From the NCBI GenBank assembly GCA_048940925.1, contig JBHLOC010000004.1, positions 1 through 64,000 of the forward strand: DNA of 64,000 nucleotides. The letters run 5' to 3'. Source of the DNA: Promethearchaeota archaeon. Lineage in GTDB: Archaea; Asgardarchaeota; Lokiarchaeia; Sigyniarchaeales; SOKP01. A program made the position numbers and the translations under genes. Below, in pieces: positions 38,042 through 45,645 of the stretch. Under the pieces are notes generated by a model. It had not been told where the DNA came from and searched no databases. It saw only the letters and a list, made by a program, of their open reading frames with translations. Position 1 is the first letter of the stretch, and each line of letters opens with the position of its first letter.

Positions 38042-38205
38042 TTATTCAAAAATTTCAATTTCAAGATGATTCTTTGCTTCAATAAAAATAGGACCTTTTG
38101 CAATATATGTAATAGCTAAATGGCAACCTCTTCTAGAAAGAAAAATATCATTTTTGTTAATTCCAAAAGCTCTTAAAGTTCTTTCTGGCAAAATAACACT
38201 CTTAT
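38042..38205 (-). pseudogene. 3' remnant of a paralogue of 40655..41122
   Basis: Translates KSVILPERTLRAFGINKNDIFLSRRGCHLAITYIAKGPIFIEAKNHLEIEIFE*. Confidence 0.85.
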
Positions 38206-40654: not shown

Positions 40655-41122
40655 CTATTCAAAAATTTCAATTTCAGGATGTTTTTTTGCCTCTTCAAAT
40701 ATTGGGCCTTTTGCTATAAATCCGATAGCTAAATGGCTACCTCTCCCAGAAAGTAAAGTATCGTTTTTATTAATCTCAAAAGCCTTTAAAGTTCTTTCTG
40801 GCAAAAATATGCTCTTGTCCTTAAGAATTGTTACCCAACAGTATTTTTTATTGTTTGATTCGATAATCTCACCTTCAGGTATTTTATATTTAGCTAATGA
40901 AGTATTTTTATCTATTAATTCTTTCATGATTGAATTTTTTAAAATTCTCACAGAACTTAATCCAAATCCCCCTGAAGTTTTACTTCCTGAAAATAAGATA
41001 GCACATTTATCCTGCTTTAAATTATACTCCTCATAAGCTTTGGGGGGAATTTTCACTTTACCTTGATGTCCCACTTTTGACCATCCAAATAGGTATTTTC
41101 CTCCTTTTACAATTTGTGGCAT
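40655..41122 (-). CDS. conserved hypothetical protein, probable tandem AbrB-like fold
   Basis: MPQIVKGGKY.FGWSKVG..G.V.IP…GSKTSGGF…RGSHLA…KGPI. Confidence 0.7.
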   Translation of the reverse strand: MPQIVKGGKYLFGWSKVGHQGKVKIPPKAYEEYNLKQDKCAILFSGSKTSGGFGLSSVRILKNSIMKELIDKNTSLAKYKIPEGEIIESNNKKYCWVTILKDKSIFLPERTLKAFEINKNDTLLSGRGSHLAIGFIAKGPIFEEAKKHPEIEIFE

Positions 41123-41758: not shown

Positions 41759-41821
41759 TCATTCTATTTGACTTCTCGCTGAATTTCCAGCGCATAAAAA
41801 AATTGGACTTGTTTTTGCCAT
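41759..41821 (-). pseudogene. arsC: truncated arsenate reductase (LMW-PTP type) remnant
   Basis: AGGAG SD, then MAKTSPIFLCAGNSARSQIE*, the CX5R P-loop only. Confidence 0.75.
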
Positions 41822-41915
41822 ATTAATTTCTCCTAATTTCGATTTTTAATGAAAAAATCCTTTTAATATCGACTTATATAAAATATATAGTTTCATAATG
41901 AGTAAATAACTCACT

Positions 41916-42881
41916 TTAAAATCCATTTTTCCATTTTTTAAAAGAACCAAAACCTTCCTTTTCAAATTTAATTTGTTTATTTTTTTTATCAAAAATAATT
42001 GAAAGAAAATAAGAAGATCTTCTTGAATAACTTTCAGCCAAGATTAACACAATTTGAATTGAATTTTTGTTTTCTTGGAAAAATGGAATAATTGAATCCC
42101 ATTTATGAAAGAATCTGTATTCCTGACTTAGACTCTCAGCTAATTCATAGTATAACATATTCTCTGAATTTTTTAAAATATTATGATTAAAAATTTCTTT
42201 TCGTCTAGAGGAAAACACAAATTTTTTCATCAATTTAAAAGTAATACCATCTTCATTTATGTCTTTCTCATAAATAAAATAAGACCACGGTAAAATACCT
42301 GGAACATAATGTTGATTCTTTTGAAGTTTCACTTGTACTAAGATTCTTAAAATTGCGCGTGCTCCAAAATAACATAAATATATGGAAGAATATATCGTGG
42401 TAAGAGCTCGAAATAAATAGTAATTTGGAATTGTAAGGAATAGCATAAATAAAGTAAAAAAGTTTATACCTGAAAAGATAAAAAGAATAGGATTTATTGC
42501 TCTGTCAGCGAGAAATCTATACTCTTTTTTTGAAATCGGGTAAAAAATCGGAACTTTTGAAGCCGTAAAGAGATCTAGAGTCACATGAAGACTATATCCT
42601 ATGAAACCAGCAATCCAAATCTCAATAAATATACCATTTGTTAAAATTGATATGATTAAACTAAAAATACCAGTAAAAAATAAACCACTGACATAAGAGT
42701 GAGTGCCTGCTCTATGTGATAAGTAATATAATTTATATTTTCTCGATATTGGTTCAAATAATAGATCAATATCAGGGAAAATAGCCATAACGACCAAAAA
42801 GAGGACTGATTCTGAAGATAAAGTAAGTACTAGAGGGAAATATGCTAAAATTCCAATAAGTGTATGTGTAAAAATATCCAT
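41916..42881 (-). CDS. membrane-bound metal-dependent hydrolase (YdjM/YfhP-like)
   Basis: MDIFTH, PDID, HRAGTHS, H..LD. Confidence 0.85.
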   Translation of the reverse strand: MDIFTHTLIGILAYFPLVLTLSSESVLFLVVMAIFPDIDLLFEPISRKYKLYYLSHRAGTHSYVSGLFFTGIFSLIISILTNGIFIEIWIAGFIGYSLHVTLDLFTASKVPIFYPISKKEYRFLADRAINPILFIFSGINFFTLFMLFLTIPNYYLFRALTTIYSSIYLCYFGARAILRILVQVKLQKNQHYVPGILPWSYFIYEKDINEDGITFKLMKKFVFSSRRKEIFNHNILKNSENMLYYELAESLSQEYRFFHKWDSIIPFFQENKNSIQIVLILAESYSRRSSYFLSIIFDKKNKQIKFEKEGFGSFKKWKNGF

Positions 42882-42949
42882 TTTTAATATTAAAGGATTT
42901 AAATTTTTATTTTTTGAAAATTTATTGCTTTTAAGGAGGCAATCCTATT

Positions 42950-42985
42950 GTCAATCTTTTACTATCATTTTTTAAAAGACTTCAT
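42950..42985 (-). promoter_or_regulatory. candidate SECIS-like hairpin
   Basis: AUGAA-GUCUUUUA-[AAAAAUGAUAG]-UAAAAGAU-UGAC on the minus strand, about 130 nt after a TGA-TGA. Confidence 0.45.
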
Positions 42986-43110
42986 TCAAATCATTCATTA
43001 ATTCTTTTAACTTCAAAATAATGAGCGAATTCTTCATCATTTTTTCCAAATTTTTTCATGATAATCCTTTTAAAAGTACCAAAATCTACACGTTCCTTCA
43101 TGACATCAGC

Positions 43111-43470
43111 TCATCAATCAGCATGGACTACTATTGTAATCTCACTTTCAGGAATTAAGTTAAAATTAATATCCTCCTGAAGCGGTATGAACTCTCTATT
43201 GGGACCATAAGCATTTACAGCGCAGTCTTCATAAATCTTATTCTCCTCCGAATCCCAAATTAATTGGAGGAAGCTATGAATTAAGCCTTTATATATTGGA
43301 AAAATAGAGTTTTTTGGATTTTCATACATATGTTTATCTAAAATACTCAATGCATCAATAATAGTTCCATCATCTTTTAAATCTAAATTGTATTCTATCC
43401 CCTTTGATAACTTTTTTTCAGGATCAGGGGCAAATATTGTTAGTTTAATATTCTTAATTCTAAAATTCAC
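43111..43470 (-). CDS. beta-grasp (MoaD/ubiquitin-like) hypothetical protein, possible C-terminal selenocysteine
   Basis: …TIIDAL…L…L.PESEITIVVHAD then TGA TGA; last gene of the acr3 run. Confidence 0.65.
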
Positions 43471-43503
43471 CTCAAAATTATAAAAATATAAATTTACTAA
43501 GCA

Positions 43504-43917
43504 CTAAATAAGCCCTTTAGCTTTAAGTAGTTTGGGTAATTCCTTTCTAAGAGTAATTGAGGAAGAAACTTTTATCTCTCCATCAAGAACCACACATTTA
43601 TTATGAAGATTTAATTTTCTAGCTTCTTTTGAATTTAGGTTTTTTGTATCGTAGTCGATATGTTTTATATAAGGGGTGAGCTCTACAAAAACACGATTTA
43701 TGAATTTATCCCACTCACAAGCACATACATCTAAAGGCACATAGATATCTACTTTCAATTTTCCTTCTTTTAAGCTTTTAAGATTATCTAAGCTACAGCT
43801 TTCTTTTCCACAATGTAAATCTGAATCAATACTACAAAAATCTCCCCAATAATCAGGTGATGCCCTAATTTCTTTCATAACCTTTTCTACAGTTTTATCT
43901 ATCTCATGATCAGACAT
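43504..43917 (-). CDS. Cys-rich thioredoxin-fold/ArsD-like protein
   Basis: Six Cys including VPLDVCAC; C-terminal CVVLDGE; follows acr3. Confidence 0.6.
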   Translation of the reverse strand: MSDHEIDKTVEKVMKEIRASPDYWGDFCSIDSDLHCGKESCSLDNLKSLKEGKLKVDIYVPLDVCACEWDKFINRVFVELTPYIKHIDYDTKNLNSKEARKLNLHNKCVVLDGEIKVSSSITLRKELPKLLKAKGLI

Positions 43918-43990: not shown

Positions 43991-45049
43991 TTATTGAGTT
44001 TTCCAAAATCTCCGTTTTTGAAGATATCGTCCCAAATATACAATTGAAAGCATTACTGGAACCTCCCAAAACAATCCCATTGTAGTTCCTAATGCTGCGA
44101 TTGAACCAATTCCATACATAGCAATAGCTGTAGCGATAGCAATTTCAAAATGACTTGATGAACCAATAATTACTGTAATGATCGCTTCTCTATATTTTAA
44201 TTTAAATAGTTTCGTGATGAAAATATTATATCCAACAACAATTACAAATCCAAGTAATAACGGTATCGATACTAAAAGCAAGAGTTTTGGATTATGTATT
44301 AAGACATCTCCATTCATTGAGAAAAGAACAATCAAAGTTGTTAGTAAAGCTACAATTGATATCTTTCCGACTATAGGTCTATAGGTATTGTTAAACCAAT
44401 CTTCACCTTTAGAAGATATTAATAATCTTTTACTAATTACTCCTAATAGAAGGGGAAGCCCAATAAAGATAAAGATCGAGACTAATAGTAAAATCCAATC
44501 AACAGGTATGTTTTGAATGCCTGTTAATAATGTTACCATAGGAGCATAACCGAATATTATTGTTATCGTATTAAGACTTGTGTTCACTACATTTTGTTCT
44601 TGATTCCCTTTTGCCATCCATCCCCATACTAAAACCATCGCCGTACAAGGACTTGAACTTAATAAAATTATGGCAACTATTAATTGTTCATACCCAGGTA
44701 CAAAAATTCGAGCCATAAGCAAACCAACAAATGGAGCAATTAACCAATTAGAGATTATTGTCAAGATTATTGGTTTGGGATTTCTTCCTAATTTTTTTAA
44801 TTCAGAGACTTGTAGGTTCAACATTGCAGGATACATCATTAAAAATAAACAGATCCCGATAGGTATAGAAATTTGACCTATACTCAAAGCATTTATAGCT
44901 TGGCTAATTCCAGGAATTATCTGGGAAAAAAGAATTCCAATGACGATGCATAATGCAACCCATAAGGGAAGAAACTTTTCAAAAAATCCTAGTTTTTTAG
45001 ATTCTGCATCTTTAGTTATTGAAATTTCCTCTGTTTCTGATACACTCAT
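43991..45049 (-). CDS. acr3: Acr3 arsenite efflux permease
   Basis: FFEKFLPLWV, LMMYP, NWLIAP, PCTAMVLVW, SSHFEIAIA, EVPVM. Confidence 0.95.
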   Translation of the reverse strand: MSVSETEEISITKDAESKKLGFFEKFLPLWVALCIVIGILFSQIIPGISQAINALSIGQISIPIGICLFLMMYPAMLNLQVSELKKLGRNPKPIILTIISNWLIAPFVGLLMARIFVPGYEQLIVAIILLSSSPCTAMVLVWGWMAKGNQEQNVVNTSLNTITIIFGYAPMVTLLTGIQNIPVDWILLLVSIFIFIGLPLLLGVISKRLLISSKGEDWFNNTYRPIVGKISIVALLTTLIVLFSMNGDVLIHNPKLLLLVSIPLLLGFVIVVGYNIFITKLFKLKYREAIITVIIGSSSHFEIAIATAIAMYGIGSIAALGTTMGLFWEVPVMLSIVYLGRYLQKRRFWKTQ

Positions 45050-45243: not shown

Positions 45244-45645
45244 GTGATGGTAATAAATAAAAGGCGCACTATTGAGATAACAGACTCCCTCGAGAGTTGT
45301 ATTAACATGACTGAAATCGATGTTAAAACCTACTTTCGAGATTTGCAAGATTTGGGGAAAAATTTAGAAAAATCTAATAAATTTAAGAAATTATTAGAAT
45401 TTTGTTATGTAATTGGTAATAAAGAGCGTTTAAAAATAATTGCAGCATTAAAAGATAATGACCATTGCGTTTGTGAATTAGAAGCAATCTTAGATAAATC
45501 GCAACCATCAATATCACATCATCTTAGAATTCTTGAAAGCATTGGGCTTATAAGAAGCTTTAAAAAAGGTAAATTTACTCATTATGACATTATTAAAGAA
45601 ACAGTTAATTCATATTTAGATCTACTAAATCAAGAATTAATTTAA
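45244..45645 (+). CDS. arsR: ArsR/SmtB family regulator
   Basis: RLKII..L…CVCEL…SQPSISHHLRILE..GLI; divergent from acr3. Confidence 0.9.
   Translation: MMVINKRRTIEITDSLESCINMTEIDVKTYFRDLQDLGKNLEKSNKFKKLLEFCYVIGNKERLKIIAALKDNDHCVCELEAILDKSQPSISHHLRILESIGLIRSFKKGKFTHYDIIKETVNSYLDLLNQELI

Follow-up and report, generated by a model that had tools for sequence, protein, structure and literature searches.

The question raised by this locus is whether two consecutive TGA codons end a short gene or lie inside a longer one. Coordinates throughout are positions in the window, that is, the whole 64,000-nt stretch of DNA that was analyzed (Promethearchaeota archaeon GCA_048940925.1, contig JBHLOC010000004.1). 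A minus-strand ORF at 43114..43470 is closed by the residues VVHAD and the TGA pair; a first-pass annotation of the sequence had read this VVHAD-TGA-TGA ending correctly. It had proposed that the first TGA specifies selenocysteine (Sec) with the help of a hairpin downstream. Beyond the pair the same frame continues for 39 further sense codons before reaching another TGA, and the coding sequence then predicted has 159 codons (Table 1). Its start, assumed to be the GTG at 43468-43470, is uncertain.

Table 1. Features of the selenoprotein locus and its arsenic-related neighbors, in window coordinates
Feature	Coordinates	Strand	Basis or remarks
Full predicted selenoprotein CDS	42994..43470	-	159 codons, Sec at 119 and 120; translation with TGA = U
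First predicted Sec codon (UGA, residue 119)	43114..43116	-	TGA invariant in 49 distinct sequences; gapless Cys match in C-U-U clade
Second predicted Sec codon (UGA, residue 120)	43111..43113	-	TGA invariant in 49 distinct sequences; invariant column in 43-row read-through alignment
C-terminal extension, 39 codons, predicted helical	42994..43110	-	Codon-position entropies; model pLDDT
True stop codon (UGA)	42991..42993	-	5 nt ahead of SECIS core
Loki-type SECIS	42951..42985	-	AUGA, 9-bp stem, 11-nt A-rich loop ending AG, then GA
Short second hairpin straight after SECIS	42933..42948	-	Conserved; compensatory changes by eye in 3' flanks
Thioredoxin-fold protein, 137 aa, C-A-C motif, Cys-rich N-terminal part	43504..43917	-	Adjoins selenoprotein gene in 39/53 loci
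ACR3-type arsenite efflux permease	43991..45049	-	Pfam SBF 1.3e-39; same cluster in 39/53 loci
Divergent ArsR-family regulator	45244..45645	+	Pfam HTH_5 5.5e-16; in 32/53 loci

Asgard metagenome bins contain over 160 close relatives of the 118-residue product of the short form, almost all of them annotated as 118 aa long and ending in HAD; a few database records, called with a code in which TGA is Trp, run through both codons into the conserved tail. Annotations that stop at the first TGA suggest two genes: a 118-residue protein with a double stop, and a small ORF translated separately. The hairpin would then be a terminator, or a chance fold of the kind that AT-rich DNA readily adopts. Comparison with relatives makes such an arrangement very improbable. 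Related Asgard loci were retrieved from one genome per species, 53 in all, with 49 distinct sequences for codon analysis. In 53/53 the TGA-TGA is in frame and leads into a conserved extension of 32-42 codons in that frame. The stops at the end of the extension vary (TAA 41, TGA 9, TAG 3); the paired codons are never TAA or TAG.

The extension also evolves as coding sequence would. Mean entropies at codon positions 1/2/3 are 0.46/0.38/0.92 within it, the third position being about twice as variable as the first and second, and 0.31/0.28/1.15 in the last ten codons ahead of the pair. Synonymous codon changes occur at conserved Ala, Arg and Gly residues of the extension, and the codons right after the pair are conserved at the amino-acid level. 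Some loci have Leu, Phe or Val where others have the internal Met; the extension is therefore left without a conserved start codon from which a separate gene could be translated. The double stop with an independent small ORF was rejected on these grounds: the absence of a conserved start, the frame maintained in every locus, and the score of the hairpin as a SECIS under a model built from other genes' elements (R2, below). The comparative evidence firmly supports the read-through gene model.

The pattern extends well beyond the 53 loci. Of 400 genomes scanned from the phylum, 137 have the gene, among them 116 of the 134 that belong to the window's own family. All 150 matches listed in that scan have TGA inside, two or three each and never none; for the window's own gene, the whole-genome search gives one match with two TGA inside. 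The gene occurs in every other family of the class with any match, and each of five distant genomes from these other families, examined singly, has two in-frame TGA at the motif.

The motif itself takes several forms. The window's clade has D-U-U (U for Sec) together with a nearly invariant Cys83. In a paralogous clade, frequently encoded within the same cluster, the motif is G-C-U-U and position 83 is Val or Ile; G-C-U-U is likewise what the distant families of the class have. U-G-U-U, with three Sec, occurs in a small clade. As spacing to the next conserved Arg is equal in all forms, a gapless alignment sets the Cys of C-U-U opposite Sec119 and leaves Sec120 invariant. Cys at the TGA position, which had been put forward as strong support for Sec, is thus found in a sister clade for the first codon but not for the second: the database search, the 400-genome scan and the distant genomes yielded no all-Cys form and no homologue that has Cys instead of the invariant Sec120. 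A word-based search with the extension for Cys-Cys forms returned only records with both codons as Trp. With no Cys homologue of the invariant Sec, the classic Sec/Cys pairing is only partial. Of 66 gene copies, 49 combine Cys83 with D-U-U, 12 have C-U-U without Cys83, 4 have both together and 1 has U-G-U-U; at least three Cys/Sec residues are present at these sites in 66/66, in genomes that are related and not independent, with several clades in agreement.

A selenoprotein gene of a Lokiarchaeon is expected to carry its decoding signal in the 3' untranslated region. The first-pass annotation had described a hairpin about 130 nt downstream with an AUGA...GA core and a loop opening in five A, while cautioning that AT-rich DNA might form it by chance. 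The hairpin is real, with its AUGA 131 nt downstream of the first UGA. Its stem has nine pairs, one of them G-U, rather than the eight counted earlier, and its 11-nt loop opens with five A and closes with AG. It thus has every feature by which lokiSECIS elements are defined: a preceding AUGA, a 9-bp stem, an 11-nt apical loop with initial adenines and a conserved final G, and GA after the stem (Mariotti 2016, PMC4989117). In every related locus the element lies 3' of the true stop, with its AUGA 113-143 nt (most commonly 131) past the first UGA. Across 57 aligned copies the stem is paired in 94% of cells, and two stem positions alternate between U-A and C-G (34/15 and 11/42); none of 500 shuffles equals this covariation, and pairing falls to 40-55% when the partner strand is slid out of register.

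Reciprocal covariance models connect this hairpin with SECIS elements of known selenoprotein genes elsewhere in the genome. Model R1, built from the family's own elements only and run on the whole genome, recovers elements 3' of two HdrA-VhuD gene pairs, at 43 and 36 bits; the VhuD of both pairs has two in-frame UGA codons. A weak third match (21 bits, E 3.3) is located after an HdrA-like gene. Model R2, built from those three elements only and run on the 64 kb window, has a sole significant match, at 42947-42989 on the minus strand (40.6 bits, E 2.6e-6), with the runner-up at 13 bits; the concern about a chance fold is answered by this difference. The eukaryotic and bacterial SECIS families of Rfam gave no match in 42700-43600 at E up to 10. 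Comparative evidence, then, identifies the hairpin as a genuine Loki-type SECIS. The element begins only five bases past the terminal UGA of the gene, and this codon would stay a stop by the reasoning that Mariotti et al. apply to other Loki genes: it is too near the SECIS for recoding, UGA codons in that position being described as acting as stops (PMC4989117).

The short second hairpin directly after the SECIS is conserved in this gene family (compare loci L070 and L074); its compensatory changes were judged by eye only. The SECIS elements of HdrA-VhuD have a similar hairpin behind them, and there the two hairpins seem to be enclosed together by a lower helix.

Read-through could also take place without Sec, by means of a near-cognate tRNA or through lineage-wide reassignment of UGA to Trp or Gly, and some public gene calls do give Trp here (translation table 4). 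There is next to no chance of this. UGA otherwise acts as a stop in this organism: it closes 5/35 long ORFs in the window, it closes the present gene itself, and it closes nine of the homologues. The genome also has the full Sec machinery, as the proposal of a selenoprotein demanded: a tRNA-Sec (63.7 bits), with a SepSecS gene 0.6 kb and an EFSec-like gene 4 kb from it, a PSTK-like gene, and SelD. Genome-wide reassignment was rejected because UGA stops elsewhere and for this gene, and because the SECIS and the Sec machinery are present. The SelD genes are two in tandem (contig C72:3553-6078, plus strand), with one in-frame TGA each.

Sec is thus very probably inserted at both UGA codons. The earlier proposal is supported for the first TGA; it did not foresee that the second would be read as Sec too, nor that the residues would be internal (119-120 of 159) and followed by a conserved helical extension of 39 residues, where it had pictured a C-terminal Sec. 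Its central suggestion, a new selenoprotein with a Loki-type SECIS, is upheld by the conserved TGA pair, the extension and the covarying stem. The best explanation overall, and one we hold with considerable confidence, is a selenoprotein gene shortened by annotation, with its SECIS past the true stop. Under this explanation the SECIS would let a Sec-specific elongation factor bring Sec-tRNA to both recoded UGA codons, 131 and 128 nt upstream of the element, and translation would pass through the pair to yield a 159-residue protein. Counting against it, two directly adjacent Sec codons ought to be costly to decode.

The nature of the product is suggested by an AlphaFold model made from 43 read-through homologues with Sec entered as Cys (pLDDT 90, pTM 0.86). 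Residues 1-118 form a beta-grasp domain in this model. The closest structures make a uniform list (transcobalamin beta domain, CysO, SAMP1, HVO_2177, MoaD and Urm1); scores are middling in VIA-align (Z 5.7-7.2 for structural neighbors, 5.7-7.0 to CysO, SAMP1 and MoaD), and Foldseek probability rises to 0.99, the value for Urm1 and SAMP1, with E about 4e-3. Full-length E. coli MoaD (residues 1-81) covers model residues 7-120, and this places the Sec pair where the carriers have their C-terminal Gly-Gly, in line with the MoaD/ubiquitin-like fold first suggested. The extension has helices at 121-124 and 130-141, modeled with high confidence (block-mean pLDDT 84-96 across residues 121-150); this conserved helical segment would pack back onto the beta-grasp domain. 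The predicted product is accordingly described as a 159-aa MoaD/ThiS/SAMP-like beta-grasp protein with Sec119-Sec120 at the position of the Gly-Gly tail. From beta-grasp topology alone, Cys83 would lie close to the Sec pair. Searches of Pfam and NCBIfam at E up to 0.1 assigned no family to the protein in either its short or its read-through form, ThiS, MoaD and ArsD included.

Resemblance to the sulfur carriers brings up a first possible function. In MoaD, ThiS, CysO, SAMP and Urm1, as would be the case here, a beta-grasp domain presents its reactive residues just past the last strand, at the Gly-Gly site in the carriers. The protein might then be a chalcogen carrier like MoaD, ThiS or CysO, whose Sec loop brings S or Se, as selenotrisulfide or perselenide, to a partner enzyme. 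The fold and the location of the Sec pair at the reactive tail of these proteins are what such a role would predict; it is improbable all the same. Sec-Sec or Cys-Sec-Sec replaces Gly-Gly, and the profile match that the carriers would lead one to expect is missing. The chain runs on for 39 residues, so that the tail is internal and there is no free C-terminal carboxylate to activate, unlike in the sulfur carriers. Nor was an E1-like activating enzyme or a sulfurtransferase found among the conserved neighbors.

The neighbors that are conserved belong with arsenic, as the first-pass annotation had recognized. Gene order in the window is divergent ArsR, ACR3-type permease, 137-aa protein, selenoprotein, YdjM-like membrane protein and HD-domain protein. 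Most loci share the order ArsR, ACR3, thioredoxin-fold protein, selenoprotein, and the association outlasts changes in gene order; DGC-domain, DUF3795 and glyoxalase proteins are other neighbors among the loci. The 137-aa protein has no Pfam or NCBIfam match. In the model its residues 53-137 adopt a thioredoxin fold and match thioredoxins, and C-A-C lies at the first strand-helix junction, where thioredoxins have CxxC. The N-terminal part of this protein and its homologues is poorly conserved and modeled as disordered, and in several loci the homologue is divided into two ORFs, a Cys-rich N-terminal piece and a CxC domain.

Some loci (L014, L019, L022, L037, L054 and L060) have an HgcAB-like pair inserted between ACR3 and the thioredoxin-fold gene. 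One member, of 552 aa, joins a methyltransferase to a CdhD-like corrinoid domain, and the other is a 118-aa two-cluster ferredoxin with a Cys-Cys tail; the pair occupies the place where an arsenite methyltransferase might be expected. In the window, just upstream of the HD-domain gene, a 20-codon ORF (41771-41830, minus strand) has only an ArsC-type P-loop with the second Cys changed to Ala; it looks like a decayed arsenate reductase. As judged from gene order, the arsenic association is limited to the window's family of genomes. The C-U-U relatives in five distant lineages are not beside arsenic genes; their neighbors are a hybrid-cluster protein, a GNAT acetyltransferase, an enoyl-CoA hydratase, a cation-diffusion transporter and a Ras-like GTPase.

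A selenoprotein in this setting might handle arsenite. Cys triads of ArsD and ArsR are three-coordinate As(III) sites. By analogy, two selenols and the conserved Cys83 would make a three-ligand site for a soft metalloid, most likely arsenite; the selenoprotein and its thioredoxin-fold CxC neighbor would hold As(III) or pass it to the ACR3 pump, under ArsR control. The recurring ars cluster order and the presence of at least three Cys/Sec residues in every one of the 66 copies favor such a role. We prefer it tentatively, at somewhat less than an even chance, in the form of a three-coordinate As(III) site of Cys83, Sec119 and Sec120, with the thioredoxin-fold neighbor and ACR3 as presumed partners. 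Like ArsD, and like the As(III) sites of ArsR, the product of this ars-operon gene has vicinal chalcogens that could make a three-coordinate site with a third ligand. Unlike ArsD, which has a thioredoxin fold and Cys only, the selenoprotein is a predicted beta-grasp protein, and the thioredoxin fold belongs to the 137-aa neighbor; the Pfam search, at E up to 0.1, did not link it to ArsD either. ArsD serves the ArsA ATPase and is not known to serve ACR3.

An extension of the arsenite reading, more doubtful, makes the Sec-Sec loop a mobile selenol arm that passes As(III) or another soft metal(loid) between the thioredoxin-fold CxC protein, ACR3 and sometimes the HgcA-like methyltransferase. If true, the arm would amount to a selenium-based metalloid chaperone, a class of function that, to our knowledge, has no precedent among selenoproteins or ubiquitin-fold proteins.

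The main rival to an arsenite site is a redox role, in which the Sec pair is a redox center and not a metal site: it would cycle through a diselenide or selenenylsulfide, be recycled by the thioredoxin-fold CxC neighbor, and may stand in for the lost arsenate reductase of the cluster. The thioredoxin fold of the neighbor, with C-A-C at the canonical active-site position, is what such recycling would call for; an ArsC P-loop remnant of only 20 codons is all that is left downstream in the window; and the distant G-C-U-U relatives outside arsenic clusters suit a general redox role. The motif also resembles the Gly-Cys-Sec-Gly tail of thioredoxin reductase. In that tail, as in the UxxU of SelL, neighboring Cys/Sec or Sec/Sec in a flexible segment can form a selenenylsulfide or diselenide, although both are eukaryotic proteins with other folds, and a Sec-Sec dipeptide is not described for them. 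Nevertheless a redox role seems rather unlikely. No oxyanion-binding motif was recognized in the protein, organisms of anoxic sediment encounter mainly arsenite, and a constant set of three Cys/Sec residues fits a trigonal As(III) site better than it fits a two-electron redox pair.

In logic, the nearest analogies are the bacterial CU-motif selenoproteins of Haft and Gwadz. There, too, annotation is shortened at a UGA beside Cys, adjacent chalcogens are read as heavy-metal ligands, and the neighbors include thioredoxin-like proteins and efflux pumps; HgcAB-like genes are found in some of the present loci. The CU-motif proteins differ in being bacterial, in having a bacterial SECIS and other folds, and in having one Sec beside Cys.

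Comparison with the selenoproteins already described from Lokiarchaea brings out what is shared in decoding and what is not. Those decoded with a lokiSECIS are HdrA, VhuD/FrhD, VhuU/FrhA, PrxL and SelD (PMC4989117; PMC11227280). The present gene has in common with them the 3'-UTR element itself (AUGA, 9-bp stem, 11-nt A-rich loop, GA), the use of one SECIS for more than one Sec, and the UGA near the SECIS as a stop. A single SECIS can serve tandem genes, as in HdrA-VhuD: at L035, L048 and L063 the D-U-U gene is immediately preceded by its C-U-U paralogue, which has no SECIS of its own, so that one element would serve four UGA codons in two genes. At L063 a frameshift breaks the downstream D-U-U gene. 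Unlike the other Loki selenoproteins, this one is of an unrelated family and fold, its Sec residues are directly adjacent, and all-Cys homologues were not found.

Seven Asgard selenoprotein families have been found by homology to known families (Huang 2024, PMC11227280), and eleven archaeal families are counted in a 2026 review in which MoaD, ubiquitin and sulfur carriers are unmentioned (PMC13188914). The SECIS-based search of Mariotti et al. (PMC4989117) reported no further families, and Sun et al. 2021 have HdrA, Prx and MvhD only. The present family is not among the seven or the eleven, nor in PMC4989117; a full-text literature search combining selenocysteine with beta-grasp, ubiquitin-like, Asgard or arsenic found no description of it, and a search on adjacent or tandem selenocysteine found nothing relevant. 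From these comparisons, a ubiquitin-fold selenoprotein family appears to be missing from published selenoprotein catalogues. Having neither Cys-containing nor previously known relatives, it would escape homology-based surveys.

If this account is right, a widespread family is added to the archaeal selenoproteome. In it a single eukaryote-like SECIS, at an almost constant distance, would serve two Sec codons that stand directly side by side, a natural example that bears on Sec decoding in the archaeal relatives of eukaryotes. It would also tie selenium use to arsenic handling in Asgard archaea, and present a ubiquitin/MoaD-type fold with its reactive tail rebuilt from selenols. Since three genomes of the same order that consist of a single contig encode relatives, cultured strains may be open to proteomic tests.

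In the same genome (C63:88277-88576, plus strand) there is a second candidate for an unannotated selenoprotein, about 100 aa long, in which the N-terminal part is a membrane anchor and a C-x-x-U motif is conserved. A Loki-type SECIS lies about 115 nt past its UGA and scores 33.7 bits with the family SECIS model; the TGA is also present in homologues from two further genomes of the genus (loci L076, L077 and L078). Within the window, a 49-aa ORF at 38042-38191 (minus strand) is closely similar to the C-terminal third of a 155-aa protein encoded 2.5 kb away (40655-41122, minus strand), and is probably a truncated duplicate of it.
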